The notes beneath the pieces are model-generated. The model did no database searches. It had not been told where the DNA came from and worked only from the letters and a program-made list of their open reading frames with translations. Below are positions 935-34,223 of a stretch of DNA of 64,000 nucleotides, piece by piece. Position numbers and translations under genes: made by a program. Source of the stretch: Nitrosopumilus sp. (lineage in GTDB: Archaea > Thermoproteota > Nitrososphaeria > Nitrososphaerales > Nitrosopumilaceae); NCBI GenBank assembly GCA_965223425.1, contig OZ245003.1, forward strand, positions 1,024,001 to 1,088,000. The letters are read 5' to 3'. Position 1 is the first letter of the stretch, and the number at the start of each line of letters is the position of its first letter.

Positions 935-1348
935 CTAAATGTATCTGAAAATTGTTGGTTTTTCTGATTTTGGGTTCTCAGAAACAAGTGCAAAATTGTA
1001 TAATGGATACTCTTTTTTGTATTGTTTCATAAAACTCCACGCCACATCATGCGTTTTAAATTCAGTTCTAATGCCGTCAATCTGGCTCTTTTTTCCAAAC
1101 ACATCAAAGACTACCACTGAATATTGTTTAGGACGATTGTGAGGTTTTGCTTTAAGAAACCATGCAAGTGCAAAAACAAAGACTGATCCTAAAATTACAT
1201 ATTCTCCGGCTACTTTGAAAAATGCCATAACAACTCCTGGTATGGTTTGTCCAAACAGAACTGCCATAAAATTTGAAAATGAAATAACTGCTAGTGCTGT
1301 TATGATGTACGTTTTCCAATTAAAGACTTTTTGAAAAATATTTGGCAT
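935..1348 (-). CDS. Hypothetical membrane protein
   Basis: 137-aa ORF with two hydrophobic N-terminal segments and host-like composition. Confidence 0.75.
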   Translation of the reverse strand: MPNIFQKVFNWKTYIITALAVISFSNFMAVLFGQTIPGVVMAFFKVAGEYVILGSVFVFALAWFLKAKPHNRPKQYSVVVFDVFGKKSQIDGIRTEFKTHDVAWSFMKQYKKEYPLYNFALVSENPKSEKPTIFRYI

Positions 1349-1391
1349 CTATTTTTAATGGATCTTTTTTGATTTAACTATTTCCCATGAA

Positions 1392-2682
1392 GGTTCTGTG
1401 AAGTTATCGGGAGTTAACCCCTATAACTCGACTTTGACATATCGGCTATTCGGATTGCCAATGGTGTGCCGGATTCCGTCATCGCCGGCTCAAAAGTGCC
1501 GGACTGCGCTTCACATATGTCATCTCTACTGCCCCTAAACCTGGGGGGCAGCTTGCGTGATATGTTGTTCATGGCAGCGACAATATCCCTGTCCATAAAC
1601 AAACCGCAATTATTACACGACAGTTTACGATGCTGTTGCATGTCCTCTTGGAGTCTCTTTCCGCATTGCGGACACTGCGTGCTCGTGTTTCTTGGGTCTA
1701 CATATTCGACTGGCGGGAGCCCGACCCATCGGGCTTTGTATTCTATTTGGCGTTGCAGCTCGTAGAATTGCCACCCGTTCAATCTGCGCCTGTACTTGTT
1801 GCCCTGACCATTTCCTTTTTTGTAGAGTTTTCTAACTCCTTTCAGGTTTTCTAGAACGATTGCAGCCTTTTCTTTGACGGCATTATCCACAATATCCTTT
1901 GATATTCTGTGGATGTACTGCCTTGCTCTGTCAGTCATTCTTCGCTGTTTTATCTTCCAGAACTGGTTTTTCTTCCTGCGGTCATTTCTGTGGAAGCCTG
2001 CCCTGGCGTGTACTGTGTTCTCCTTTATGGATAACAGTTTGTTTGTCTTGCAGACTGTCACCCCTTCCTCGCTCCCACACGTCACATTTCTTAGGTTTCT
2101 GTCTATTCCAACTTTCTTGGTGCACTCTATCTCTTGTACTTTTTTTGAAACACAAAGACTGATGTTGAGGGCAGTCAGTGAAAACGAGCGCACCGTCAGG
2201 GCGGGATCAGACAGGATTTTTTGGGTGTGATCGTTGAGTAAGATGTTGATTGTGTTGTGTTTCTTGTATGGGATTGTTAGTAGTGCACCGTTGTGTTTTA
2301 TGCCGTAACAGTTTGTCATAAAGGGATTTTTGACTATTGGGTCTCTTATTCTGACGCCTCGTTTGACTGATTGTTTTCTGTTTGATAATATGCCTGCAGC
2401 TCTTGATATTGCACATATCTTGTATGACGATAAAATGCCATAGTTACGCAATTCGTGACAACATAACATGGACAGCCTCTTCATATTGTGAGTGTCTTCT
2501 TTCAACCCTATCTTGATGCAATGATTGGCCATCTTTGTGAATGTAGCCGCCATATCCATTAGGTCAGAGTTTGGCGCATATTTCTGTGATATTGGCTTTA
2601 TCGCCTTCAGCGAATATCTTGCGGTTTGGAGGCTTGTACATTTTGGGAATTGACATGTAACTCCCGATAACTTCACAGAACC
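1392..2682. mobile_element. Non-autonomous TIR-bounded element carrying tnpB
   Basis: Perfect 25-bp TIR GGTTCTGTGAAGTTATCGGGAGTTA (1392-1416) and its reverse complement (2658-2682); flanks CCCATGAA (1384-1391) and CCTATGAA (2683-2690) form an 8-bp TSD with one mismatch. Confidence 0.9.
1414..2610 (-). CDS. tnpB: TnpB (IS200/IS605 OrfB-like RNA-guided endonuclease); start uncertain
   Basis: RuvC-I GIDRN, RuvC-II VLENL, zinc finger CPQC..CNNC, RuvC-III DRDIVAAMN. The track ORF start at 2712 lies outside the TIR, so the true start is placed internally (~2610 or a downstream ATG). Confidence 0.9.
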   Translation of the reverse strand: MKAIKPISQKYAPNSDLMDMAATFTKMANHCIKIGLKEDTHNMKRLSMLCCHELRNYGILSSYKICAISRAAGILSNRKQSVKRGVRIRDPIVKNPFMTNCYGIKHNGALLTIPYKKHNTINILLNDHTQKILSDPALTVRSFSLTALNISLCVSKKVQEIECTKKVGIDRNLRNVTCGSEEGVTVCKTNKLLSIKENTVHARAGFHRNDRRKKNQFWKIKQRRMTDRARQYIHRISKDIVDNAVKEKAAIVLENLKGVRKLYKKGNGQGNKYRRRLNGWQFYELQRQIEYKARWVGLPPVEYVDPRNTSTQCPQCGKRLQEDMQQHRKLSCNNCGLFMDRDIVAAMNNISRKLPPRFRGSRDDICEAQSGTFEPAMTESGTPLAIRIADMSKSSYRG

Positions 2683-2708
2683 CCTATGAATAAAAATACG
2701 TACGACAG

Positions 2709-3845
2709 TCAATCTGGATCTTCGTAATTTTCTTTCTTTTCGCCGCTGGAGGTACTCCCCCTCATTGGCTTCATCTTGCTTTTAAGAACATCCATTCTGG
2801 CTCTGTATCCTTCAGCATATTCCAGTTCTGATGGAACAAGTGTAGCCGGATGAATGAATCCCTGGCTTCTAATTGCCATCGCTTTCTTCGTTGCAATCTC
2901 TCTTATGTAGTCCCAGTCCGGAGTTGAGAATCCATCAAATGGACCTGTAAACTTTCCATTATGCATGCTAAACACCAATGACTCAACAATTGGAATGCAG
3001 AAATTTATAGTTGCAGCAGAATTTAGTTTTACAGGCATTAGTGGCATGTTGTGACTGCCTCTTGTATTTCCTGCTACATAATGGGGATTGTTAAAGACGC
3101 TGCCAACTTCTTCTGTTGCTGGAAATTTCTTTTGTGTTCTAACTAAACAGACTGGATCGTCTTTTCCAACATATGTTCCTGCAATGTTGTGCAGTCTGTC
3201 AGTTGATGCTGCAAGAATTGGCTCTCCATCTTTGGTGGTTACTGAGTCTACAACATATCTTCCCGGATACATTAATGCTGCCTCTATTGTTGGCTTGTCT
3301 TGCCATAATTCAAGTTCTGCAACCTTTCCCTCTTCAACATCCATGATGTTCATTTTTACGCCGCCTGCAAGACTCTTGTTAACAATCAATCCTGTATTGC
3401 TTAGCGAGTCTACAAACATTCTATAAATTGGATAATTGAATGCGCCCGGCTCTGTCTTGTCTGCTGCAAATACTGTAAATGCCTCGTTTGGCCTTTCCTC
3501 AAACTCCATTTCCGCAACTCCGGGACCCATCCCTTTTACGTTTCCCGAAAAAGAGTCTTTTAACAGGTCTTGTCCTGCGCCATACAGGCCCTCCTCTTTT
3601 GCGACTTGGGTTCCTGCCATGAATGCGTCCCATGCCAGTTTGTGAATTTGTTGATTGTCTACTCCATGTGTGTGAGACATTACAATATGTGTGTCATCTC
3701 CGCAATAACCAATGTAATAATCAATTAGCAAATCTGCTGAATTTTTAACGGTGCTTCTAACTGCATCAAGCAGTCTGTCACTTGGTTTTGTGTGACCTCC
3801 AACTCCTCCCACATCTGCTTTGATAACTGAAACTGTAATCTTCAT
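2709..3845 (-). CDS. fbp: Bifunctional fructose-1,6-bisphosphate aldolase/phosphatase
   Basis: IKADVGGVGGH, GLYGAGQDLL, ADKTEPGAFN and YVGKDDP motifs. Confidence 0.97.
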   Translation of the reverse strand: MKITVSVIKADVGGVGGHTKPSDRLLDAVRSTVKNSADLLIDYYIGYCGDDTHIVMSHTHGVDNQQIHKLAWDAFMAGTQVAKEEGLYGAGQDLLKDSFSGNVKGMGPGVAEMEFEERPNEAFTVFAADKTEPGAFNYPIYRMFVDSLSNTGLIVNKSLAGGVKMNIMDVEEGKVAELELWQDKPTIEAALMYPGRYVVDSVTTKDGEPILAASTDRLHNIAGTYVGKDDPVCLVRTQKKFPATEEVGSVFNNPHYVAGNTRGSHNMPLMPVKLNSAATINFCIPIVESLVFSMHNGKFTGPFDGFSTPDWDYIREIATKKAMAIRSQGFIHPATLVPSELEYAEGYRARMDVLKSKMKPMRGSTSSGEKKENYEDPD

Positions 3846-7060: not shown

Positions 7061-10000
7061 TTGCAACGATTGATAAAACCACCATTGCTTGCAACAGTAG
7101 CAGCAGCAACAGCGCTTGTTCTTCTGATTCCACTTTGCATCCCCTTTGCTGATGCCACGATAGATTCGCCTGTTCCAGTAGCCTCTGTCACTGACGGCCA
7201 GACCCATTCCAACGGCCAGACATTTGACGAGCTTGCAGGCGCACGTGCCATCACCACCGTAAAGATAGGCACCAGTATCTATGCCCTGGTTGCAGCATTC
7301 GATGACCACGGCGTCCAGATAATCAACATCACTAATCCCGCAAACCCCGTTCCGACTGCCTCCTTTGATGACGGGGATCGCGTTACAGTCGACGGGACAA
7401 CCAAGACATTTGACGAGCTTGGAAGCGCCACTTTCATCACCACAGTAAAGATAAGTTCCAACACGTACGCCCTGGTTGCAGGAGGCCTTGACAGAGGCGT
7501 CCAGATAGTCGACATTACAGATCCCGCAAACCCCGTCCCAACAGCCTCCTTTGATGACGGGGACACCGTCACAGTCGACGGGACACCCAAGACATTTCAC
7601 GAGCTTCGCGACATAAATGGCATCACCATCGTAACTATCGGCACCAGTACGTACGCCCTGGCCACAGCAGGCATTGACGACGGCGTCCAGATAGTCGACA
7701 TTACAGATCCCGCAAACCCCGTCCCGACTGCCTCCTTTGATGACGGGGACACCGTCACAGTCAACGGGACACCCAAGACATTTGACGAGCTTAACGGCGC
7801 ACGGGCCATCACCACCGTAACTATCGACTCCAGTACGTACGCTCTGGTCGCATCAGGCGATGACGACGGCGTCCAGATAATCAACATCACTAATCCCGCA
7901 AACCCCGTCCCAACAGCCTCCTTTGATGACGGGGACACCGTCACAGTCGACGGGGAAACCAAAACATTTGACGAGCTTAACGGCGCATGGGACATCACCG
8001 CCGTAAAGATAGACACTAGTATCTATGCCCTGGTCGCGTCAGACGATGACCACGGCGTCCAGATAATAGAAATTACTAATCCCGCAAACCCCATCCCGAC
8101 TGCCTCCTTTGATGACGGGGACACCGTCACAGTCGACGGGACACCCAAGACATTTGATGAGCTTCGCGGTGCAGAGGGCATCACCACCGTGAAGATAGGC
8201 ACCAGTACGTACGCCTTGGTTGCAGCATGGAATGACGACGGCGTCCAGATAATCAACATCACTAATCCCGCAAACCCCGTCCCGACTGCCTCCTTTGATG
8301 ACGGGGACACCGTCCCAATCGCCGGGGCAACCAGGACATTTGACACGCTTAAACGCGCATATGGCATCACCACAGTAACTATCGGCTCCGGTACCTACGC
8401 CCTGGTCGCAGCAGAAGCTGATCACGGCGTCCAGATAGTCGACATCTCGGCAAGAACTATTCCAGGCCAGACCACGCCAGTAATCAAACTTTTCGGTGTG
8501 AACCCGCACCTGATGGAGCTTGGCGGCGCCAACTATACAGAGTCCGGGGCCACGTGTAATGATGCAGACGGCACCGATCTAACAAGCAAAGTCATCATAA
8601 ACAGCGACAGTGTCAACAGGCTTGCCGTGGGGGAGTACCAAGTTACCTACGACTGTGCAGCAGATGACAGCGGCAGCGACAGCAGCAGGGCCGACACCAT
8701 GATCCGCAAAGTCGCAGTCCGCGACACCGTAAAGCCCGCATTTGTAGTCGATGAGCACGACGCAGACTATACCACCACCATAAACCTTGGGGGCATATAC
8801 GTTGCAGGCACGATCCTAAACGTGACTGACCGCGACCAGTTCACCCAGAGCACAGAGAACGCCGAGACAGTCAACACGGACAGTCCTGGAACCTACTACG
8901 TCACATACACCGTCACTGATGCCTCTGGCAACTCGCACACAATAACTGAGACCGTAATAATATTTGATCCAAGGCCCCCCGCAATCACGCTAAACGGCGA
9001 CAACCCGTACTTTGTGGAGTGGGGCTCCGGATACGACGAGCCGGGTGCCGTATGCATTGACGGTGCAGGCGATGACACGCTCTCCCCGGAGAACCTCGTG
9101 ATAAACTTTACCGCACCAGTTGACGCACTCACCGTGGGCTTCTACGAGGTCAGCTACTACTGTACGGATCCAGACACCAACATTCACACAGGCCCCGTGG
9201 TCCGCCCGGTTACAGTCCGCGATACGGTGTCACCCGTAATTGTTGATGCCTCCATGCTCGGGGCAGGCACCATAGTCCTGACCTACAGCGAGCCAGTCGA
9301 CGTAAAGTCCGATGCGACTGACGGCTCCGGGTTCGGGCTGTCTGACGGAGGTGGAACAGTACATTTCAACTCGGATCCCGCAGGCGCCGCCAACAAGATA
9401 ACGCTTGGCATCTCCGGGCGTAACGGCTCCACTGCCGATCCGCCTGACATCACGTATGATTCTGAATCCGGAGGAAGCGTGGAGGACACCAACGGGAACG
9501 CCGCGCACACGGGGACCTTTGATGGAACCATAGATATGGCGCCCCCCATACCAAAGTCTGCCCGCACGTCCAACTCCACTGCCATTCACATCGGGCTTTC
9601 AGAGGCAGTAGCTGACGCCGGTGTCGCTCCCGGCGACTTTGCGCTGTCTGTGGCCCCCTCAGCAGTAACGCCTGTTAATGCTACTGTGCATGCAGGTGAT
9701 GATGATAATCTCCACGCTGCCCCGCATGTCACCTCCGTGTCAGTTGACGGCTCCCGCATCACGCTCCTCCTAAACGGCACGCTGCACGGAAACCAGGACG
9801 TCAAGGTCTCATACCAAAAGGGCGGCTCCATCGGTACGGGCACCGGTTCAGGCGGCACCATAAACGACCTCTCAGGGGGCACCACGCTTGCCGGCTCTGT
9901 TCCGATCGGCCAGCAGGCAGACTTTCCAGTCGCCATGACCCTCTCCAAGGACGGCACAACAATTTTTGTGCTTGACTTTTTTAACAGCCTGCACGCATAC

Positions 10001-13000
10001 GGTTTGCCTGCCCCGTGGGACACATCCGGCGCATCCCACGCATACACCACCCCGCTGTCATCGCTGATACCGCCCGTTCCAGTCAACAGCACCGTCACGG
10101 TGAACCCCGAAACTTACATGGCGGGCCTGACCTTCTCTGATGACGGCACCAGGCTGTTTGCCACAGACGCGCTGGACGGCTCTGTCATCCACGAGTTTGC
10201 GTTCTCCTCCCCGTGGAACGCCTCTGCTGAATCCTTTTCCTCGTACACTGCCCACTCTTTATCCCTGTCCGGCATCGGGCCCAACACGGATCTGCGCGGC
10301 ATTGACTTCTCGCCGGACGGTACCACCATGTACATCGCAAGTGACCTCAACGACCAGATACACGAGTTTTCCCTTACTGATGCGTGGAACGCCTCCTCTG
10401 CCTTCCCGACGCCGCACAGCATCTCTGCGCAGGGCCCCCGGGCAGACGCTGCAGATGTCACTGCAGGCATCGCCTTCTCCGCTGACGGCTCCCGCATGTT
10501 CGTGGCAGTGCCTGATAAAAACCTCATAAACGAGTTTGCGCTTTCAGAGGCCTGGAACATCTCAAGTGCCGCACACGCGGGATCATTCAGCCCAGGGCCG
10601 TCCGTATTCAGCGTCCTCCCCCCCGGTTCCCTGTCCTTTGTTGACGTGGAACTGCCGTTTGAGCCCTCTGACGTGGCCTTCTCCGCTGACGGCACCAGCA
10701 TGTTCGTGCTAGATGAGAGCGCAGGCGATGACTTTCCTGATTCGGTATCCGGCCTGACGCCCGCAGTAAAAGGGTACGCTCTGGCGCCCCCTGCCAAACC
10801 CTTTGATCCCGGGGCCCTCCCAAACCAGCTCGGGTCATTTGGGCTGCGTGAGGTCCAAAACACCCTGCCTGTGGCAAGGGCAGGCCCTGACGTCTTTGCA
10901 TATACGAACACGGCAGTGTCCCTTGACGGCACCGGCTCGTATGACGCAAACGGCGACACCCTGGCATACCTGTGGGAGCAGACTGGAGGCCCGGGGAACG
11001 TGGCACTGGATGATCACACCCTGCAAAAACCGGCGTTCATAGCACCTGCAGTGGCAGACTCGGGGCCCCCCATCGTACTGGAGTTCACGCTGACGGTAAG
11101 TGACGAAACAGGCAACGCAGACCGTGACACGGTGGCAGTAACGGTGCTTGCAGGCGTGGGTACGCCTGCTATAGTGTCTGCCAGCGTGGTCAGTGCGACG
11201 CAGTTTGAAATAGTGTATAACAAGGCAGTACACGGAAACAGCACCGATTACACCAACCTTGTAATTGACGGCAGGGGGCAGACAGTCGGTGTGGTGGCCG
11301 GCACCGGGACTGCAACTCACACCGTCTCATATTCCCCCTCTGATACAACGGCAACAACAACAACAGCGACTGATGCGACAGGCACCGTGGATATCGGCGC
11401 GGGAATTACCGATGCCCACGTGCCTGACATCTCGCTGGTTCCAGTTGTCGGCCAAACGCTGTCTGACGGCGTTGCCCCTACGCTGGTTTCTGCCAGGACG
11501 GGTCCTGCCTCAAACCAGATAGACGTCACCTTCTCTGAGGCTGTCCGCAGCGGCGCCTCTGATGACTTTGTCGGCTGGAGTGTATCGCTGGGAGACAACA
11601 ATGACAACTACAACACAGTCATTACAGTCACCGGCCTTGACGGTACCGGCAGCACTGCAACCCTGACGCTGCAAAAACCGGTCATGCCCAGTGACGCAAC
11701 GCCTGACGTAACGTACGATGCCGCTGCGGGGAGCGTCTCAGATGCGGCAGGCAACCCGCTGGCAACTGCAACTGTCACCGCTACTGCGGGACATCCTGCA
11801 GGTCTTCACATCCACCTGATCGGCGATGCCTTCCTATACCACCCGTACGGGGAACCGTACACCGACAAGGGCGTCCTGTGCCATGACGCAGACGGAAACG
11901 ACATAACTGACACCGGCGACTATGAAACCCTGCCATACCTGCAGCAGCTAAACAAGACCAACGTCAACCTTCATAAAGATACCGTTCTTAATTTTACCCA
12001 CCAATCCCAAAACGAGTACCGCCCATTTGATCCGCAGGAGGTAATATACAGGTGTGTCACCCCGCTTGGATCCGTAGAGGAGGGCAGGACCGTAGCCCTG
12101 CGTGATGAAACCCCTCCTGAAATCCGACTAAACGGGCCACGCGACGTGGATCTGGAGATAGGCAAGACATTTGATGAGACTGCCACGTGCACTGACGCTC
12201 CTCTCAAATACCAGAGAGAACGTCTAACCGGTGCCTTTTATCTGACTTTTACCATCTCTTCCCTCCCTGACGGGTACCAGGACACCGCAGGAGAGTACAC
12301 GATAAGCTACACATGTTCGGACTCTAAAGGCAACGACGCAGAGGATACAAGCAGGACGCTTCATGTAGGCACGCCTGACAACACGCCACCCGTGCTTGCA
12401 GTCAACCCCGGTGTGGTGACCACCCTGGAGAACGGCACGCATACCGTACGGCAGGATGTCGGCTTTGCAGCAGCAGGTGACGGCGGCCTGCAGACAGCAG
12501 TATCCTGCACGGACAACAGGGATGATACCCCCGCAATCACCCTTGATCCTGCCACGGTGGACACCTCGTCTGCTGGCACCCACGCCGTAACGTACTCCTG
12601 CACGGATGCTGCCGGCAATCCATCTAATACAGTCACAGTCACCTGGGATTTCGGTCCTGCAGCCCCCGTGCTTGCAGTAACGCCCGCAGACACCGCAGTC
12701 ACGCTTGCAATCAACGCATCATACAGCATCCCCACAGCATCCTGCACAGACCACAAAGACGGTGATATCACCAACACCGGGATTCTAACTGCCATCTCGT
12801 CTGGAGGCCAGTCAGTCGACGAAATAGACACCTCCTCTGCAGGCACCTACGATATAACGTACTCCTGCTCAGACTCTGACGGCAACACAGTAGAGCACAA
12901 CGTGACAGTCACAATCCGGGCTGCCACAACTGACAACACGCCGCCTCACATAGTGCTAAAGTCGCCGCCCCTGACACTGTTTGTTCCGGCCGGAGCCGCC

Positions 13001-15679
13001 TTTGCAGATGCCGATCCCGGCGCCTTCTGCATTGATGGCCAGGACGGACGCACAGACGAGGGAATCGACGTGGATGCCACCGCACTTGACACGGCCGTTC
13101 TTGGCAACCACACCGTGACGTACTCCTGCACGGATTCTGGCGGCCTCCGGTCTGACACCATATCAAGGCCAGTCAGCGTGTACGGATTCACCGTAAACGG
13201 GAACATCGCCGACTTTGCAACTGACATCACCACCTCTGATGTCTACGAGCCATACGCAATCCTAGACATTACGAATATCAAGAATGCGTCACCCAGCAAA
13301 AAGTATTACGATACAGACGGGCAAGACACTGCCCCCTTTAACGGAACAACGCTCCAGGCGGGAACCTGGAGCGTGACGTATGCCGTCTCTGGCCGCGACG
13401 ACGTGTCAAATCCGATCAACTTTGCAATCGAGGAGACCATAACCGTGGCTACTGCGACTGCACCGCCGGATGACAACGTCACCCCGACTGCGAGAATCAG
13501 CGCGCCTGCCACCGCAGACGAGGGAACACTGGTAACCCTTAACGGCACCGGCTCGACAGACACTGACGGCACCATATCATCATACGCATGGACCACCAAC
13601 GACACGTCCATCACAATAACAAACCCCTCTCAGGCAACTGCATCATTTACGGCGCCTAATGTCACAAAAGACACCCGGCTAGTCATCACGCTGGATGTAA
13701 CTGACAACAAAAACGCTCCAGGCTCTGCACAGCACACCATGACCATAACCAATGTAAACCAGCTACCGGACGGTACACCTGACACCACGCCTCCAACCTT
13801 TACGGTAAACGGCAACGCAGGCGACTTTGCGACGTCCCTAACAGAAGGCCAGACCTACACGGAGGGCACGATAGGCAACATCATAGAGGCTGACAGCCCT
13901 CCGACCGACCAGGGGACAAGGTACTATAACGGCACCGGCGATGCTGCCACCATCATCACTGCCGAAAACGAGATCGACTCCATTAACGGTACCCAGCCTG
14001 CAGTCGGAAGCTACACCGTACAGTACAGCGTCTCTGACTCGGCCGTTCCGCCAAACACCCACACAATCACAGAGACGGTAACTGTGGGTGAGGCATCAGT
14101 GATTGCACCACCTCCACCACCTTCTCCTCCTCCTTCCAACACGCCACCAACCATTACGCTTAACGGCAATTCCACAGTAACGGTAAAAGAGAGTCTACCG
14201 GGGGAGGAGGATCCACTGTACGATGATCCCGGTGCCACCTGCACGGACAGCGAGGACGCCGACGCTGAAGGCTATCCTGAACTGAAGACAGGCGGCGACA
14301 CCGTACGCACCTCCGTCCCCGGCACATACGCCATCACGTACTACTGCCTGGACTCTGACGGAGACAGGTCAGAGACCCTGACCAGGGAAGTCACAGTCAC
14401 AGAAGAAAAGCCCAAGCTCGCACTTGACGGCCCTAACCTCGTATCCCTGCCAATTGGGGCGTCATCTGACATGATCAATAACATAAACTTGAACGCCACC
14501 TGCACGGATCCGCAGGAAGGCACCATTAATGACAGAATCGAGGTGCAACTGCTGTTCGGCAACCAAACGTCAATTGATACGGTAAATGACATATCGGACA
14601 TATCGGATATACGGAACCAAATCAAGACCGACCAGCGCGTCACCTACGAGATAGAGTACTCCTGCACAGATCGCAACGACGGACGCTCAGCCGAACCTGC
14701 CATCATAAAAGTCGAGGTGGGCAGATCCGGCGGCGGCGGTGGCAGCAGCGGAGACGTCTCTGCCCCCTCAATCCGCACGGGCTTTGATGCGGGCCAGTAC
14801 CCCCTGGTATACGACGGGGTAAAGTACGGCCCTGACACGATTGACTCGCCCCACACTGCCACGATACGCGCAGGCAGCGGCGAGAGGCTTCTCAGCACCC
14901 TCACAGTATACGAGAACGGCGGGGCGCAAAACGTACAACACGTCGACATGTTTGTCGCACACGACGGCAGGACAATACACAACGACGGCACGGAAACCCA
15001 CGTGACATACGATTCGGGCAACGTCCGGATAACTGATCCGCACGGCCTGATTGCCAGCGCCACTGTGGATGCGTCTGCCCTCGACGCCACAAAGGCGCAG
15101 TTTGAGTTTGCCATAACCTTTGCCAAAAAGGTCCCGCTCTCTGACGTGCTGTACCGCCTGTGGGACACCGGCAGAAACGCGCTTTACATCCACCTTGAGG
15201 ACGCCCTTGTGGTGTCTGAGGGAAGGAAAGGCGGAGGCGGAGGTAGCAGTGGCGGCAGCAGCAGCGGTAGCAGCAGCAGCAGTGGCGGAGGCGGAGGCGG
15301 CGGCGGCAGTAGCAGCAGCAGTACTGCCACCCCAGCCACCGGCAGCGGCAACGGCACAACCACAACAACCACCACCACCGCTGGCAACGGCACCGCAGCT
15401 GACACTGCAGACAAACAGCAACCACAACAACAACAACCCCTACAAGGCTTTACCGCAGAACAGCTTGACACCCTAAAGCAGTGGGGCGGATTTGCGTCCC
15501 AGTCCGCATCTGACTCGCAGCTTTTAGCCCAGTTCGGAATAGAGGGCACCAGCATACCCCCATACTTTAAGCAGACAGCAAAGTGGTTCCTTGATGCAGA
15601 TGACGGCGGTGACGGCCTGACTGCGCAGGAGTTTGTCGCAGCGCTGTCGTACCTTGGGCAGCGCGGGCTGCTAAACTAG
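7061..15679 (+). CDS. Giant secreted/surface protein (LVIVD-like propeller, DUF5011/HYR-like Ig repeats, second propeller, PKD-like domains, thaumarchaeal C-terminal domain)
   Basis: 2872-aa ORF with signal peptide; 7x GVQIxxIT.PANP; repeated DTxPP.I.L.G..YxEPGAxC modules; ARAGPD..LDGTGSYD PKD-like motif; C-terminal IPPYFKQTAKWF...EFVAALSYL; visibly GC-richer than its flanks. Confidence 0.9.
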   Translation: MQRLIKPPLLATVAAATALVLLIPLCIPFADATIDSPVPVASVTDGQTHSNGQTFDELAGARAITTVKIGTSIYALVAAFDDHGVQIINITNPANPVPTASFDDGDRVTVDGTTKTFDELGSATFITTVKISSNTYALVAGGLDRGVQIVDITDPANPVPTASFDDGDTVTVDGTPKTFHELRDINGITIVTIGTSTYALATAGIDDGVQIVDITDPANPVPTASFDDGDTVTVNGTPKTFDELNGARAITTVTIDSSTYALVASGDDDGVQIINITNPANPVPTASFDDGDTVTVDGETKTFDELNGAWDITAVKIDTSIYALVASDDDHGVQIIEITNPANPIPTASFDDGDTVTVDGTPKTFDELRGAEGITTVKIGTSTYALVAAWNDDGVQIINITNPANPVPTASFDDGDTVPIAGATRTFDTLKRAYGITTVTIGSGTYALVAAEADHGVQIVDISARTIPGQTTPVIKLFGVNPHLMELGGANYTESGATCNDADGTDLTSKVIINSDSVNRLAVGEYQVTYDCAADDSGSDSSRADTMIRKVAVRDTVKPAFVVDEHDADYTTTINLGGIYVAGTILNVTDRDQFTQSTENAETVNTDSPGTYYVTYTVTDASGNSHTITETVIIFDPRPPAITLNGDNPYFVEWGSGYDEPGAVCIDGAGDDTLSPENLVINFTAPVDALTVGFYEVSYYCTDPDTNIHTGPVVRPVTVRDTVSPVIVDASMLGAGTIVLTYSEPVDVKSDATDGSGFGLSDGGGTVHFNSDPAGAANKITLGISGRNGSTADPPDITYDSESGGSVEDTNGNAAHTGTFDGTIDMAPPIPKSARTSNSTAIHIGLSEAVADAGVAPGDFALSVAPSAVTPVNATVHAGDDDNLHAAPHVTSVSVDGSRITLLLNGTLHGNQDVKVSYQKGGSIGTGTGSGGTINDLSGGTTLAGSVPIGQQADFPVAMTLSKDGTTIFVLDFFNSLHAYGLPAPWDTSGASHAYTTPLSSLIPPVPVNSTVTVNPETYMAGLTFSDDGTRLFATDALDGSVIHEFAFSSPWNASAESFSSYTAHSLSLSGIGPNTDLRGIDFSPDGTTMYIASDLNDQIHEFSLTDAWNASSAFPTPHSISAQGPRADAADVTAGIAFSADGSRMFVAVPDKNLINEFALSEAWNISSAAHAGSFSPGPSVFSVLPPGSLSFVDVELPFEPSDVAFSADGTSMFVLDESAGDDFPDSVSGLTPAVKGYALAPPAKPFDPGALPNQLGSFGLREVQNTLPVARAGPDVFAYTNTAVSLDGTGSYDANGDTLAYLWEQTGGPGNVALDDHTLQKPAFIAPAVADSGPPIVLEFTLTVSDETGNADRDTVAVTVLAGVGTPAIVSASVVSATQFEIVYNKAVHGNSTDYTNLVIDGRGQTVGVVAGTGTATHTVSYSPSDTTATTTTATDATGTVDIGAGITDAHVPDISLVPVVGQTLSDGVAPTLVSARTGPASNQIDVTFSEAVRSGASDDFVGWSVSLGDNNDNYNTVITVTGLDGTGSTATLTLQKPVMPSDATPDVTYDAAAGSVSDAAGNPLATATVTATAGHPAGLHIHLIGDAFLYHPYGEPYTDKGVLCHDADGNDITDTGDYETLPYLQQLNKTNVNLHKDTVLNFTHQSQNEYRPFDPQEVIYRCVTPLGSVEEGRTVALRDETPPEIRLNGPRDVDLEIGKTFDETATCTDAPLKYQRERLTGAFYLTFTISSLPDGYQDTAGEYTISYTCSDSKGNDAEDTSRTLHVGTPDNTPPVLAVNPGVVTTLENGTHTVRQDVGFAAAGDGGLQTAVSCTDNRDDTPAITLDPATVDTSSAGTHAVTYSCTDAAGNPSNTVTVTWDFGPAAPVLAVTPADTAVTLAINASYSIPTASCTDHKDGDITNTGILTAISSGGQSVDEIDTSSAGTYDITYSCSDSDGNTVEHNVTVTIRAATTDNTPPHIVLKSPPLTLFVPAGAAFADADPGAFCIDGQDGRTDEGIDVDATALDTAVLGNHTVTYSCTDSGGLRSDTISRPVSVYGFTVNGNIADFATDITTSDVYEPYAILDITNIKNASPSKKYYDTDGQDTAPFNGTTLQAGTWSVTYAVSGRDDVSNPINFAIEETITVATATAPPDDNVTPTARISAPATADEGTLVTLNGTGSTDTDGTISSYAWTTNDTSITITNPSQATASFTAPNVTKDTRLVITLDVTDNKNAPGSAQHTMTITNVNQLPDGTPDTTPPTFTVNGNAGDFATSLTEGQTYTEGTIGNIIEADSPPTDQGTRYYNGTGDAATIITAENEIDSINGTQPAVGSYTVQYSVSDSAVPPNTHTITETVTVGEASVIAPPPPPSPPPSNTPPTITLNGNSTVTVKESLPGEEDPLYDDPGATCTDSEDADAEGYPELKTGGDTVRTSVPGTYAITYYCLDSDGDRSETLTREVTVTEEKPKLALDGPNLVSLPIGASSDMINNINLNATCTDPQEGTINDRIEVQLLFGNQTSIDTVNDISDISDIRNQIKTDQRVTYEIEYSCTDRNDGRSAEPAIIKVEVGRSGGGGGSSGDVSAPSIRTGFDAGQYPLVYDGVKYGPDTIDSPHTATIRAGSGERLLSTLTVYENGGAQNVQHVDMFVAHDGRTIHNDGTETHVTYDSGNVRITDPHGLIASATVDASALDATKAQFEFAITFAKKVPLSDVLYRLWDTGRNALYIHLEDALVVSEGRKGGGGGSSGGSSSGSSSSSGGGGGGGGSSSSSTATPATGSGNGTTTTTTTTAGNGTAADTADKQQPQQQQPLQGFTAEQLDTLKQWGGFASQSASDSQLLAQFGIEGTSIPPYFKQTAKWFLDADDGGDGLTAQEFVAALSYLGQRGLLN
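7163..8449 (+). repeat. Seven tandem ~186-bp (62-aa) intragenic repeats
   Basis: GGCGTCCAGAT recurs at 7310, 7496, 7682, 7868 and onward with a 186-bp period. Confidence 0.95.
15230..15440 (+). repeat. Low-complexity trinucleotide tracts encoding a G/S/T/Q linker
   Basis: GGC/AGC/ACC/CAA runs. Confidence 0.85.
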
Positions 15680-27453: not shown

Positions 27454-28595
27454 TAGTTAGCACATTAAATAATTGAACATTTTCACAGGCAGGATCTCCT
27501 TTCTGGCAAACAGCTTGCGTACTGACTGCTCCATCTCATCTAGCGTGCCAAACACTTTTGCAGACAGTACCCGTTTTATCACCCTCCACTGCATCTCAAT
27601 GGGATTAAGCTCCGGCGTGTACGGCAGCAGGTACTCCAGAACTATCTCGCCGTTGTATCTTTCCAGAAACTCCCTTGCCTTTTTGGATTTGTGATATGAC
27701 GCATTGTCTACAAACAGCAGCACCTTGCCGAATCTTTTGTGAACCCGTTCCAAAAAGCTGCAAAAGCTGTCGCTGTTTGACTTTTCATAAAACATAAAGT
27801 AAAATGCGTTTGCCGCCAAAGCTCCAAAGATGTATCTTCTTTCGCGTGACAAAACAGAGGGGGATGTGGCGCGCTTGCCGCGCCTTCTCCACCCGTAGCC
27901 GGGCCTGTTTGATGCCTTTTGAATCGAGGATGCATCGCCGGCCAGTACGGTGTATCCCTGCGCCGACTTTTCTGCAACGAGTTTTTTTGCCCGCTCCTGA
28001 AACTCTTTTTGCTTTCTTTTTGAGGCTGATCTTGGGTTTTTTGGACGCGCCTTGCTCCACGAAAAGCCCATCTCCCTGACCAGCTGCAGCGCGCCTGTCT
28101 TGCTGTACTGCACGCCGAACTTTTTCTTGATGTGCAGCCTTACCAGGTTGGAATCCCACAGGCTGCTCTCAAAGCCGCATGACTCCGGGCCCGCATCCAG
28201 GTCTGCTGCAAGCTGTCTTGCCTGCGGCCCGCCTATCAGGTGCTTTCGTCCCCTGCCGCTGCGCTCGAACCTTGCGCGTATTCCCTCGTCCTGTGCGCGG
28301 TTGAGCCATGCAGATATGGTGGACTTGGGCCTTCCCAGCATCCCTCCGATCCTGTCTAGCGGCACGCCGTCCTTGCGCTGCATGTACGCAAGCAGCCTGT
28401 CGCGCCTTCTGGGATCGGTCTCTTTTTTGTATGCCCTTTTGAGGTCTGCAACGCTGGTGTTTGGCAGAAATTTTGCCCCCCTTGCAACCTGTCTCTTTTT
28501 TTGTTTGTACATGCAGTGTGTGCGGTATGGCCGGTCTTGGATCTTTTGGCCAAAAATAATTGTCAAAATGGTTCAGGTTTTTTATGTACTTACTA
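27454..28595 (-). mobile_element. Element C copy 1: IS630-family IS, 1142 bp
   Basis: Imperfect TIRs TAGTAAGTACATAAAAAA / TAGTTAGCACATTAAATAA; TG on both sides on the + strand. Confidence 0.93.
27457..28566 (-). CDS. IS630-family transposase (intact)
   Basis: HTH region, AGDAS, FVDNASYH, LPYTPELNPIEMQW. Confidence 0.95.
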   Translation of the reverse strand: MTIIFGQKIQDRPYRTHCMYKQKKRQVARGAKFLPNTSVADLKRAYKKETDPRRRDRLLAYMQRKDGVPLDRIGGMLGRPKSTISAWLNRAQDEGIRARFERSGRGRKHLIGGPQARQLAADLDAGPESCGFESSLWDSNLVRLHIKKKFGVQYSKTGALQLVREMGFSWSKARPKNPRSASKRKQKEFQERAKKLVAEKSAQGYTVLAGDASSIQKASNRPGYGWRRRGKRATSPSVLSRERRYIFGALAANAFYFMFYEKSNSDSFCSFLERVHKRFGKVLLFVDNASYHKSKKAREFLERYNGEIVLEYLLPYTPELNPIEMQWRVIKRVLSAKVFGTLDEMEQSVRKLFARKEILPVKMFNYLMC

Positions 28596-28641: not shown

Positions 28642-29867
28642 GGTGCTGTCCAAATTTTTCCCGGAAATTTCCAGAAAAGCTTATAGATCATGACGAAATC
28701 CTGCTGCAAGGCTTTTGGATCACGGGCTTGGCACCATGTCAATGTCAAAACGACGAAAAAAGGGCAGGAAAAACGGACAGCATGACGCCCACGTCCGAAG
28801 GTACAGGATCCAGATGTGCCGGAACTATTCAGCATACGAGAAGAAGCGGAGGGGCGAGGGCAACAAGATAGTGACGAGGATCAAAAAACTCAAAGAAATG
28901 ATCCCCGCCGTCTTGGAGGGCGCCTCCAAGGACGAGACATCGGCACTATTGTGCGTGCTGGACATGGTGTTCCGTAACCACTCGTACAGGGTTCACGTCA
29001 CGTACATGGAACTGCACCCGGGTACGGTAAACGCCTACGGCCTAAAAAGGATTCCATCAAAATCGTCACTGCACAACATGGCAAAAGCGCTGTCAGGGAG
29101 GATCGAGCAGCTCGCAGGACTGCTTCTGGCACAGGCAGGAGACGACGCGCGCGGCACCGTCATAGGCGACTCGTCTGGGTTCTCCATCATGAATTACGTG
29201 GACTGGGAGGACGCCAAGAAAGGACTCGTCTCAAGGCGCGAGTTTGACAAGCTGCACGTGCTGGTGGCCCCGCACGGCATGATATCTGCGTGCGAGGTGA
29301 CGTACGGCAGAAAGCACGACTCGCCGGTGTTCTGCGACATGTACGGGAGGATCCCGCACGGCGACACCGGCGGCCACGTCCTGCTGGATGCGGCATACCT
29401 CTCAAGGAAGAACTGCCGTATCATTGCAGACAGCGGAAGGGAGCCGGTCATATGTCCCAAGAAGAACTCTGTTCCCAGGGGGTTTAACCCCATGGGAAAA
29501 ATGCTTCGCTGGCACAGGGACGACCCGTGCGGGTTTGCAAAGGCCTACGGCCAGCGCAGCCTGGTGGAGAACACGTTTTCTGTCATGAAGGAGAGGTTCG
29601 GCGCAGTCGCCCGTGCAAGGACGGCATCCATGAGAAGGCTGCAGCTTGTCCTAAAGTGCATCTGCTACAACCTGGTCGCATAAGACTGCCGTAATGCGGA
29701 GAGGGCTTTCCCAGCGTAAGCTGTACTCCTGCTTGCCATTCTTTGGGACAAGGCACCTGATGACGGTGTCACCGGTATTCTTCTGGCATGGGCAGCACCG
29801 ATGCTTGCCTGTTTTTGCGCAAAAATCACGAAACATGTGATCGAAATCAGTCAATTTGGACAGCACC
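28642..29867 (+). mobile_element. Element A copy 1: IS5-like IS, intact
   Basis: TIR GGTGCTGTCCAAATT at both ends; perfect 9-bp TSD GCCGTCTGC (28633-28641 / 29868-29876). Confidence 0.93.
28715..29683 (+). CDS. IS5-like DDE transposase
   Basis: IGDSSGF, KLHV, HDSPVF, LLDAAY, YGQRSLVENTFSVMK. Confidence 0.92.
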   Translation: MDHGLGTMSMSKRRKKGRKNGQHDAHVRRYRIQMCRNYSAYEKKRRGEGNKIVTRIKKLKEMIPAVLEGASKDETSALLCVLDMVFRNHSYRVHVTYMELHPGTVNAYGLKRIPSKSSLHNMAKALSGRIEQLAGLLLAQAGDDARGTVIGDSSGFSIMNYVDWEDAKKGLVSRREFDKLHVLVAPHGMISACEVTYGRKHDSPVFCDMYGRIPHGDTGGHVLLDAAYLSRKNCRIIADSGREPVICPKKNSVPRGFNPMGKMLRWHRDDPCGFAKAYGQRSLVENTFSVMKERFGAVARARTASMRRLQLVLKCICYNLVA

Positions 29868-31238: not shown

Positions 31239-32380
31239 TAGTAAGTACATAAAAAACCTGAACCATTTTGACAATTATTTTTGGCCAAAAGATCCAAGAC
31301 CGGCCATATCGCACACACTGCATGTACAAACAAAAAAAGAGACAGGTTGCAAGGGGGGCAAAATTTCTGCCAAACACCAGCGTTGCAGACCTCAAAAGGG
31401 CATACAAAAAAGAGACCGATCCCAGAAGGCGCGACAGGCTGCTTGCGTACATGCAGCGCAAGGACGGCGTGCCGCTAGACAGGATCGGAGGGATGCTGGG
31501 AAGGCCCAAGTCCACCATATCTGCATGGCTCAACCGCGCACAGGACGAGGGAATACGCGCAAGGTTCGAGCGCAGCGGCAGGGGACGAAAGCACCTGATA
31601 GGCGGGCCGCAGGCAAGACAGCTTGCAGCAGACCTGGATGCGGGGCCGGAGTCATGCGGCTTTGAGAGCAGCCTGTGGGATTCCAACCTGGTAAGGCTGC
31701 ACATCAAGAAAAAGTTCGGCGTGCAGTACAGCAAGACAGGCGCGCTGCAGCTGGTCAGGGAGATGGGCTTTTCGTGGAGCAAGGCGCGTCCAAAAAACCC
31801 AAGATCAGCCTCAAAAAGAAAGCAAAAAGAGTTTCAGGAGCGGGCAAAAAAACTCGTTGCAGAAAAGTCGGCGCAGGGATACACCGTACTGGCCGGCGAT
31901 GCATCCTCGATTCAAAAGGCATCAAACAGGCCCGGCTACGGGTGGAGAAGGCGCGGCAAGCGCGCCACATCCCCCTCTGTTTTGTCACGCGAAAGAAGAT
32001 ACATCTTTGGAGCTTTGGCGGCAAACGCATTTTACTTTATGTTTTATGAAAAGTCAAACAGCGACAGCTTTTGCAGCTTTTTGGAACGGGTTCACAAAAG
32101 ATTCGGCAAGGTGCTGCTGTTTGTAGACAATGCGTCATATCACAAATCCAAAAAGGCAAGGGAGTTTCTGGAAAGATACAACGGCGAGATAGTTCTGGAG
32201 TACCTGCTGCCGTACACGCCGGAGCTTAATCCCATTGAGATGCAGTGGAGGGTGATAAAACGGGTACTGTCTGCAAAAGTGTTTGGCACGCTAGATGAGA
32301 TGGAGCAGTCAGTACGCAAGCTGTTTGCCAGAAAGGAGATCCTGCCTGTGAAAATGTTCAATTATTTAATGTGCTAACTA
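31239..32380 (+). mobile_element. Element C copy 2: IS630-family IS, 1142 bp
   Basis: Near-identical to C1; CA on both sides. Confidence 0.94.
31268..32377 (+). CDS. IS630-family transposase (intact)
   Basis: Protein identical to 27457-28566 in the ORF track. Confidence 0.95.
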   Translation: MTIIFGQKIQDRPYRTHCMYKQKKRQVARGAKFLPNTSVADLKRAYKKETDPRRRDRLLAYMQRKDGVPLDRIGGMLGRPKSTISAWLNRAQDEGIRARFERSGRGRKHLIGGPQARQLAADLDAGPESCGFESSLWDSNLVRLHIKKKFGVQYSKTGALQLVREMGFSWSKARPKNPRSASKRKQKEFQERAKKLVAEKSAQGYTVLAGDASSIQKASNRPGYGWRRRGKRATSPSVLSRERRYIFGALAANAFYFMFYEKSNSDSFCSFLERVHKRFGKVLLFVDNASYHKSKKAREFLERYNGEIVLEYLLPYTPELNPIEMQWRVIKRVLSAKVFGTLDEMEQSVRKLFARKEILPVKMFNYLMC

Positions 32381-32857: not shown

Positions 32858-34223
32858 CAGTAGTTCCCAGATGTAGACTTGTGCCCAGATGTAGGTTTAT
32901 GCCCAGATGCCGGTGCGTTACCGCATAACTGCAATGCAAAGATCCAGATTAGGCTACGGCGTGCAATATGTCATGAAAGTCGAATTACATGACGAACTGA
33001 TCGCACGCCAGTACAATATAACATCAAACCGGTTTAAAATCTTGCGCTCGTCGTTTCAAAAGCTTGGCATGCCAATGTCTGAGAGGCACAACGCCGTATA
33101 CGGATGCAATGACATACTGGACGTGCTAATCAAGGCGTCTGAGAGAAACACGTTTGTAGAATCCCTCGTACGGCACAACAGGCTTCAAGACACGGGTGCA
33201 CGTACGCCTGATGCAGACCTGGTCATGTCTGCAGTCCGTGGCGTCAAACCGGCAGACGTGCAGGCCTGGTGTGCAAGGACGCTGGCACGCACGGTGCGGC
33301 ACGCCCGCCGTGCAGGAATGCTGCAGGACATCGACGCCATTGCAATAGACGTTACGGACATACCATACCATGGAGAGCAGCTGCAGGAGCATACAAGAAA
33401 GTCGCGTCCAAGGGCAGGAACATCCACGTTTCTCTCGTATGTCGCAGTGCACGGAGTCGGCAGGGACTCCTCGCAGATTGTCCTGGAATCGAAGCTACTA
33501 CCGGCAAAGGAAAAACTGGCCGATTTTATAGCCAAAACACGCACGAAAATCCTCAGAGGGGGCGCACACTCAAAGACTGTGTTCCTGTACGACCGCGCCT
33601 TTTACAACGTTGACTGCATGACAGAGGCAGGAAAGGGCGGGTGCCGCTACATTATGCCTGTCATCATGAACTCCAAGATCAAGAGGATAGTCAAGATGTA
33701 CAAGGACGGAAAGGCAAGCCAGGTATCGCAGCAGTCAATGACCAACAAAGACGGCGTAACTGTGACCTACAACCTTGTAATTGTCAAAAGAGACAGGAAG
33801 AAGAAGAAAAAGGGGGAGGAGGAGGAGGAGGAGGAGCAATACATTGCGTTTGCAACAAACATTCCCATCAGGAGCGCCAGAGCCATGACAGGCATCATAC
33901 CGGAGCAGTACCGCAAGAGATGGGGCATCGAGACGGGGTTTCGCGTCATAAAGGAGATCATGGGCAGGACATGCAGCAACTCCCTGTCTGTGAGGCTGCT
34001 GATGTTTTACCTGCCGCTGCTGCTGTACAACCTGTGGAGGATTGCCAGGTTCTGCCTTGATGCGGGAAAGAGGCATGGAAGAGTGTCTTCTGCGGGAAAA
34101 AAACTCACCATGGCGTTGTTTATCGTGTACATTACAAGCAGAAACGAGTTGTTTGTCAATGATCGAGGCAAGTAGAACCGATGCCAGTTGCGGTTGCGGT
34201 AAATCTACATCTGGGAACTACTG
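32858..34223 (+). mobile_element. Element B copy 2: ISH3-like IS, intact
   Basis: TIR CAGTAGTTCCCAGATGTAGA; ACGT TSD. Confidence 0.94.
32907..34175 (+). CDS. ISH3/IS4-like DDE transposase
   Basis: AIDVTD, LYDRAFY, FATN, YRKRWGIETGFR; start may be a downstream ATG. Confidence 0.92.
   Translation: MPVRYRITAMQRSRLGYGVQYVMKVELHDELIARQYNITSNRFKILRSSFQKLGMPMSERHNAVYGCNDILDVLIKASERNTFVESLVRHNRLQDTGARTPDADLVMSAVRGVKPADVQAWCARTLARTVRHARRAGMLQDIDAIAIDVTDIPYHGEQLQEHTRKSRPRAGTSTFLSYVAVHGVGRDSSQIVLESKLLPAKEKLADFIAKTRTKILRGGAHSKTVFLYDRAFYNVDCMTEAGKGGCRYIMPVIMNSKIKRIVKMYKDGKASQVSQQSMTNKDGVTVTYNLVIVKRDRKKKKKGEEEEEEEQYIAFATNIPIRSARAMTGIIPEQYRKRWGIETGFRVIKEIMGRTCSNSLSVRLLMFYLPLLLYNLWRIARFCLDAGKRHGRVSSAGKKLTMALFIVYITSRNELFVNDRGK

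Follow-up and report, generated by a model that had tools for sequence, protein, structure and literature searches.

A TnpB gene carried between IS6-like inverted ends in Nitrosopumilus, with a one-sided TTR motif beside its target-site duplications

TnpB is generally held to restore a transposon that a Y1 or a serine transposase has excised without a scar. The IS200/IS605 elements that carry it have no inverted ends, make no target duplication and move as single strands by a motif-selecting Y1 transposase (PMC13565253). The TnpA of IS607 is a serine recombinase, and its elements have neither inverted repeats nor a duplication and show GG-linked insertion. TnpB is also found with DDE transposases. 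Altae-Tran et al. (2023, PMC10691335) describe the branches DDE-1 to DDE-6, as well as solo TnpBs with the same ends, and a 2026 review finds such associations rare and unexplained and the restoration logic hard to carry over to DDE transposons (PMC13565253). Here we describe a 1.3-kb element with a single tnpB at 1384-2690 of a 64,000-nucleotide stretch of DNA from Nitrosopumilus sp., which we call the window. We believe, with a probability of roughly 70%, that it is a non-autonomous insertion sequence whose only cargo is a TnpB gene with a structured guide-RNA part, that its movement is of the IS6 type and that its insertions are associated with a TTR motif (R is A or G).

The window is C1:1024001-1088000 of a 2.64-Mb genome that is 99.99% complete. 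A preliminary description, made from the letters of the window, took the element for a lone tnpB packaged in perfect inverted repeats, and this anatomy is confirmed. The terminal inverted repeat at the right end, which is the 3' end of tnpB, lies at 1392-1416 and its partner at the left end, upstream of tnpB, at 2658-2682. The arms are 25 nt long and 100% complementary, their tip is GGTTCTGT, and an inverted-pair search of 1000-3200 gave no rival pair above 73% over 26 nt. The sole long open reading frame (ORF) between the arms, 1414-2712 on the minus strand, is TnpB. It matches Pfam PF07282 (Cas12f1-like_TNB) with an E value of 2.1e-20 and 73.1 bits, over a cut-off of 26.3, and NCBIfam NF040570 (guided_TnpB) with 115.7 bits over a cut-off of 100. 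The acidic triad and zinc finger seen earlier hold up: an alignment of 9 sequences shows no variation at D170, E254 and D342, the last within a DRD motif, or at C313, C316 and C332, and the catalytic residues are intact. By sequence, the closest relatives of solved structure are Cas12f and TnpB chains, among them the 422-aa chain 7wju_A (E 1.1e-9), which we take to be AsCas12f1. The TAA stop codon, at 1414-1416, does lie inside the inverted repeat. We place the tnpB coding region at 1414-2610 on the minus strand, counted from the codon where relatives start.

Just outside the arms are the two copies of an 8-bp target-site duplication, CCCATGAA at the right end (1384-1391) and CCTATGAA at the left end (2683-2690), with 7 of 8 bases in common. 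The single difference is a T-to-C change in the right-end copy, on the plus strand, relative to both the other copy and the empty sites of relatives, and it probably arose after insertion. The strongest evidence that this is a real duplication comes from those relatives. In 13 of 14 same-genus loci a 137-aa gene lies next to fbp; the inverted repeats are missing there and the site is present once, four of these loci reading ...gatttaactatttCCTATGAT... at that place. The remaining locus (L131) is rearranged. Insertion and duplication are thus verified, since the flanking genes of relatives abut with a single site copy and no repeat, which is the empty site that the preliminary description had proposed to look for. 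In four public sequencing runs, contigs end at 1392 and 2682 with several differing flanks, as a repeat would give. We also note one contig in public run X5 that links 1413 to 2661 (side 22).

The element has a family, as anticipated. There are about 15 copies of it in the genome, and a TnpB protein search points to 22 places. The 25-mer has 26 genomic matches at no more than 3 mismatches, compared with 0 for a reversed-pattern control, and 16 of the 22 type-A ends match the repeat at 25 of 25 bases. Thirteen paired copies were extracted, eight of them exactly 1291 bp long and two with insertions. A variant, type B, has two copies, about 80% protein identity and a different inner repeat. Eight elements of the genome have perfect and mutually different 8-bp duplications, next to which the window copy has its 7/8. 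The copies at C1:1325308 and C1:1451399 carry each other's flanks in reverse complement. This fits an inversion between two copies or intramolecular replicative transposition of the IS6 type (PMC7986276); ordinary recombination gives the same pattern.

A few other places in the genome are worth recording here. The copies at C1:654737 and 785206 have the same altered left tip, ACGTCTGT in place of GGTTCTGT, and the same 15-nt flank in opposite orientation, which suggests a duplicated or inverted segment and not two separate insertions. The sequence caattatgatGGTTCTGTCCGGCATTAGCTGC recurs at about 25 C1 places, for example at window 36802, with an identical left context, so its GGTTCTGT belongs to the interior of a different repeated element and does not mark an IS6-type end. 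On contig C2 (123 kb) the TnpB matches are only weak (24-26% identity) and come without 25-bp repeats.

These ends are not confined to one genome. A one-genome-per-species scan found 207 relatives, of which 78 loci were kept and 72 were examined for repeats. By their record titles the kept relatives are Nitrosopumilus, Nitrosotalea, Nitrosotenuis, other Nitrososphaerota/Thaumarchaeota and Bathyarchaeia, with more than 35 loci from a single Nitrosopumilus record. A GGTTCTG-anchored repeat matching at least 15 of 25 bases is present in 49 of the 72 public loci; 28 of these have a perfect duplication and 2 have 7/8. Such ends and duplications also surround TnpBs that are only 30-33% identical, in other genomes of the order. 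A draw of 29 loci with distant TnpBs (locus L145 of genome G324 left out) gave repeats at 11 and a duplication of at least 7/8 at 8. When all elements are compiled, 42 of 62 have an 8-bp target duplication matching at 7-8 of 8 bases. An unrooted FastTree of 68 TnpBs, with rows that had stops in the match or short flanks left out, was labelled by the presence of a repeat pair of at least 16/25. The label changes 18 times, compared with a shuffled mean of 22, and repeat-bearing rows fall on both sides of the deepest split. Several rows labelled as having no repeat have one recognizable tip or just miss the threshold, so these counts come from a label too noisy for counting origins.

What moves such an element? 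According to Varani et al. (2021, PMC7986276), the marks of IS6/IS26 elements are direct target repeats of 8 bp and short inverted ends that carry a GG tip and a cTGTt motif. The elements described here share all of these; their inverted repeats measure 25 bp, compared with 14-20 in IS6/IS26. IS6/IS26 encodes its own transposase, while only tnpB lies between the ends here, making this at most a non-autonomous derivative. The IS6 review mentions one passenger-carrying member and two miniature inverted-repeat transposable elements (MITEs) (PMC7986276); the passenger here is tnpB. Neither a Y1 (PF01797) nor a serine recombinase (PF00239) match was found in the genome with profile searches, and no homologue sits beside either kind of transposase. 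The genome does have 8 matches to the IS6-type DDE domain, with three full-length copies and many fragments by tblastn. Two of these IS6-like proteins were tested. Both have an N-terminal zinc-binding region and match Pfam DDE_Tnp_IS240, with 52.7 and 44.8 bits over a cut-off of 27. An IS240-type DDE domain is in the transposases of the partner elements, and an N-terminal zinc-finger extension is known in long members of IS6/IS26.

The link between these transposases and the TnpB elements is in the ends. All three intact IS6-like transposase genes lie within elements with GGTTCTGT or GGTTATGT tips and 8-bp duplications of 7-8/8, so the resemblance to IS6 ends that the preliminary description pointed out is borne out, and many small repeat-only elements in the genome have tips of these two types. 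One end of a degraded transposase copy at C1:793069-793977, which carries an internal deletion, agrees with the type-B tnpB repeat in 24 of 25 bases. The best non-TnpB matches to the type-A repeat are small repeat-only elements (21-22/25) and the end of a transposase fragment (20/25). A PF13610 hit is present in 6 of 7 related genomes with TnpB and in 11 of 34 without, these genomes being non-independent. On the grounds of the same tips, the 8-bp duplications, the 24/25 type-B end and the missing Y1 and serine matches, mobilization in trans by an IS6-like enzyme is the best-supported explanation. We consider it very probable that an IS6-like DDE transposase with an N-terminal zinc-finger region, encoded at another locus, mobilizes the element.

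There are good reasons to hold back from certainty, and we gather those that count against such a mover here. The NCBIfam IS6 model is by far the best family for both tested proteins, and their scores of 121.9 and 111.2 bits fall just below its cut-off of 125. The earlier proposal of a DDE transposase acting in trans gains support from the IS6-like partners without being proven, and the autonomous partner with the same inverted repeat that it called for did not turn up. Neither in the genome nor in G041, a second genome with many copies, did we find an intact transposase with an identical repeat; the ends of the three intact ones match type A at 18-19 of 25 bases. In G041 none of 61 matches to the 18-nt tip falls, by eye, within about 5 kb of its 8 PF13610 hits. 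Across 89 relative loci there is no full transposase within 4 kb, and a fragment at 2. Harmer and Hall (2019, PMC6807381) argue that the archaeal and zinc-finger 'IS6' elements are perhaps separate families without experimental data. The archaeal IS6 status is therefore disputed and experimentally untested, and replicative transposition here is extrapolated from bacteria.

Could the mover be some other enzyme, with the common GGTTCTGT tip convergent or borrowed? An IS630-like, an IS4/IS5-like or an unrecognized transposase would fit the failure to find an intact IS6-like transposase with an identical repeat in this genome or G041, and IS630-like (DDE_3) and DDE_Tnp_1 transposases are present in the window. 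We think this highly improbable. The three intact IS6-like transposase genes are all inside elements with these tips and 8-bp duplications, the degraded IS6-like copy has 24 of 25 end bases as in type B, the combination of an 8-bp duplication with GG...cTGTt tips is the published IS6 signature (PMC7986276) and IS630 makes TA duplications (PMC13565253).

The right end of the element has a second layer of structure. When the final 230 nt are aligned across 28 diverse elements, nucleotide blocks appear that are conserved beyond coding needs, and RNAalifold gives 13 pairs, 11 of them with compensatory changes. A third helix was added by eye before the pairing statistics. With it, 89.0% of 465 cells are paired, compared with 33.8-40.5% when the partners are slid, and changes on both sides occur in 155 cells compared with 14-34 for slid partners; the covariation score was reached by 0 of 500 shuffles. 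Over the last 64 nt, 28 of 30 elements fold with the inner half of the repeat paired to a subterminal segment, which leaves a single-stranded tip of about 6-10 nt (ACAGAACC). A hairpin of this kind forms at the left end in 13 of 30, only a moderate contrast to the right end. We place an omega-RNA-like scaffold at 1392-1621 on the minus strand, where it overlaps the 3' end of tnpB, reaches the element tip and has three covarying helices and a terminal hairpin with the inner part of the inverted repeat as its 3' arm. A predicted structured RNA over the 3' end of tnpB is in the expected place and has the expected form of an omega RNA. No relevant Rfam family was found in 1200-2900, the sole match being a lncRNA model with an E value of 0.26. 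In one RNA run, which consists of contigs only and shows neither transcription nor RNA ends, matches fall on 17 of 30 bins, all inside the element. Word depth in its contigs is higher over 1392-1749 than over 1892-2594, a measure that cannot rank gene parts.

Since the guide of a TnpB is read from the DNA just outside the right end (PMC10691335, PMC13565253), the predicted guide-template DNA is the 20 nt beyond that end in tnpB sense, 1372-1391 on the minus strand, and it begins with the right-end copy of the duplication (1384-1391). We also note a 344-bp derivative at C1:1199933-1200276, which keeps both inverted ends and the last ~90 tnpB codons, that is the RNA scaffold region, has a perfect duplication, GGATAATT, and has TTG at its left-end side. 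It is a candidate stand-alone omega-RNA element.

A further property of these insertions lies just outside the duplication. We oriented the elements by tnpB and scored the neighboring bases wherever the duplication reached at least 7/8, which gave 42 elements. On the side upstream of tnpB, T occupies position -2 in 41 of 42 and position -3 in 31, and position -1 is divided between A (19) and G (21). The T followed by A or G is present together on 40 of 42 left-end sides and on 6 of 42 right-end sides (Fisher p 8e-15). TnpB-less IS6-like elements of the genome serve as a control: among 10 of them the joint motif is on 4 of 20 sides (p 2e-9), and the genome frequency of TR is 0.13. The exceptions are the two most distant TnpBs, with TAT and TTT. 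At 2691-2693, directly 5' of the duplication, the window copy reads TTA in the sense of tnpB, or TAA on the plus strand, and this is its instance of the candidate target-adjacent motif. Among 19 rearranged copies without a duplication the left end still has the T in 16 and the A or G in 17.

The geometry of the motif is what a guided nuclease would need. An unoccupied site is TTR, then the 8-mer, then the flank, i.e. the motif followed by an exact match to the guide transcribed beyond the right end. An occupied left junction matches such a guide for 8 nt only, after which the left end begins. The same logic applies to the IS1341 group of IS200/IS605 (the ISDra2 type), which like the present elements has a single tnpB, an omega-RNA scaffold over its 3' end reaching the right end (predicted here) and a target-adjacent motif on the left-end side (a candidate here), and in which the empty site recreates the motif and the guide match. 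Unlike IS200/IS605, the present elements have inverted ends and an 8-bp duplication between the motif and the left end, and no Y1 gene was found in the genome. The inverted repeats and the duplication also set them apart from IS607, and a PF00239 recombinase was not found. The PAM of AsCas12f1 is NTTR (PMC10821844). In a sub-lineage around the distant locus L038, with the same kind of ends, the triplet is TAT in 3 of 3, so the motif may track the nuclease and not the ends.

We put the chance that TTR is a target-adjacent motif recognized by TnpB at about even. One reading of the near-universal TTR is that insertions which happened to fall next to it spread or were retained in a nuclease-dependent way. 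Some of the evidence does not favor this. Selection by homing alone must be strong to yield 40/42. The triplets of the distant group are mixed (TAT, TTA, TTC, TTG twice, TTT twice and GGA among 8 elements), and no clean second motif class exists among the distant TnpBs beyond the TAT in that one sub-lineage. The motif is also short, with 2-3 informative bases, and this leaves room for an asymmetric target preference or an effect on expression.

We take that alternative seriously enough to state it in full. The ends and duplications would be as described, and TTR would be an asymmetric target preference of the transposition complex or a flank needed for tnpB expression, for instance part of a promoter. 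There is no obvious promoter inside the element and tnpB starts near its left end, while the flank is T-rich at -12 to -9 (19-21 of 42) and A-rich at -8 to -7 (21 and 25 of 42), which could be a TATA-like signal; the TnpB-less control is small at 10 elements. We nevertheless consider it unlikely. The two arms are identical over 25 bp, so a DDE complex would have little by which to orient the element to a one-sided motif, and in TnpB-less IS6-like elements the motif turns up on 4 of 20 sides, not far from the genome background of 13%. The position is fixed next to the duplication, the geometry a target-adjacent motif needs, the related Cas12f uses NTTR and the TAT of the distant sub-lineage comes with similar ends.

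Put together, recognition of TTR by TnpB and movement by an IS6-like enzyme suggest the following scheme, which we offer as a proposal. An IS6-like DDE transposase from another locus would move the element and make the 8-bp target duplications. The right end would have a dual role, with the inner half of the inverted repeat also forming the last hairpin of the RNA scaffold. A transcript leaving the element would carry the guide, with the duplicated 8 bases first and then the flank. TnpB would cut alleles without the element at TTR and the guide match, after which repair from an occupied copy would propagate or maintain the insertion. In bacteria, IS6 elements move replicatively, with the donor copy staying where it is. 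If movement is replicative here as well, nothing would be excised, and the nuclease would serve homing into naive alleles and not restoration after excision. Such targeting has been named non-restorative homing and is unexplained for DDE transposons (PMC13565253).

A skeptic could argue instead that the copies are immobile relics and that TnpB is kept for a host function, such as RNA-guided regulation or defense. Identity between copies is 96-99% within the genome and 92-99% within G041, with no two fully alike, which gives no hint of recent movement and is a point against the element as we describe it. The cognate transposase seems dead or absent, and most published TnpB clusters are immobile (PMC10691335). 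Purifying selection on tnpB persists, in keeping with this explanation as well as with ours: the dN/dS is 0.37 within the genome, 0.29 within G041 and 0.23 between them. A separate point against the element as we describe it concerns the start codon, which is TTG or ATG in relatives and CTG at 2608-2610 (minus strand) in all 8 full-length type-A copies of the genome. From this CTG the type-A frame continues upstream as far as an in-frame GTG at 2674-2676 (minus strand), within the left inverted repeat; G041 has the TTG and a closed frame upstream of it. The start of tnpB may have moved into the left repeat in the type-A copies. We regard the relic explanation as quite improbable. There are many copies per genome at unrelated sites with intact ends (16 of the 22 type-A ends at 25/25), the catalytic residues are intact, unlike the known nuclease-dead domesticated forms, and a one-sided motif is hard to explain without a role at the level of the element.

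How much of this is new needs care, as the preliminary description rightly warned. TnpB in inverted-repeat DDE transposons is already published, as are solo TnpBs with inverted ends (PMC10691335), and the DDE families named are IS630 (PMC10691335) and ISL2, IS630 and IS1031 (PMC13565253). In the DDE-associated elements, as here, TnpB lies within inverted terminal repeats with the 3' end of tnpB near the transposon end, and mobilization in trans was proposed for the solo TnpBs, as it is here (PMC10691335). Unlike the DDE-associated TnpBs, tnpB and a DDE transposase are not encoded together in our case; the element fits the category of solo TnpBs with the same ends. Because the transposase is never in the element, a gene-neighborhood survey could miss the link. 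The whole words IS6, IS240, IS26 and TSD (target-site duplication) do not occur in the main text of PMC10691335, whose supplements may name the families of DDE-1 to DDE-5 and could include this clade; nor do the accessible parts of that paper describe a motif next to the duplication. A literature search gave no paper with both TnpB and Nitrosopumilus, and papers with both TnpB and the IS6 family are unrelated, judging by title and abstract. As far as we can tell, the novelty lies in the IS6-type ends and in the geometry of the motif. The closest eukaryotic parallel is Fanzor in Mariner/Tc1-type DDE transposons, which is also an RNA-guided nuclease in an element with inverted repeats that makes a duplication. 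There the 5' duplication is reported to be read as part of the motif (PMC13565253), whereas here the 8-mer is variable and the motif is outside it. Fanzors are eukaryotic or viral, are often in autonomous elements and have fixed short duplications (TA, TTAA).

Other mobile DNA and large genes in this genome deserve a brief mention. The IS6-like element at C1:915423-918405 (locus L022) has an 8/8 duplication, CAATAGAG, and encodes a 345-aa transposase and a 446-aa ORF that looks, by eye, like a DNA methyltransferase fused to an HNH motif. A second IS6-like element, 256390-260474, has an ORF ending in an HNH-like motif and a nested DDE element. A cluster of insertion sequences in the window contains two identical IS630-like (DDE_3) ORFs in opposite orientation, 27457-28566 on the minus and 31268-32377 on the plus strand, and two DDE_Tnp_1 transposase ORFs on the plus strand, 28715-29683 and 32907-34175; none of the cluster has GGTTCTGT-type ends. 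The window also holds, at 7061-15679 on the plus strand, a 2872-aa ORF that contains Ig-like and PKD repeats and probably encodes a giant surface protein.

The broader significance, as we see it, is in what the element says about the uses of TnpB. A tentative interpretation is that an archaeal lineage of TnpB and omega RNA was refitted to a duplication-making, probably non-excising IS6-type transposon in which the RNA targets only naive alleles. This would be a natural allele drive uncoupled from excision, and TTR would be its footprint. The lineage offers dozens of natural insertions with known empty sites, in which the geometry of motif, duplication and end can be read from sequence, and it makes a testable prediction of TTR-dependent cutting of the unoccupied allele. 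It adds compact TnpBs of about 400 aa, for which a short motif is predicted and the RNA scaffold is defined. It is also a reminder that surveys of gene neighborhoods can miss transposase partnerships that act only in trans.

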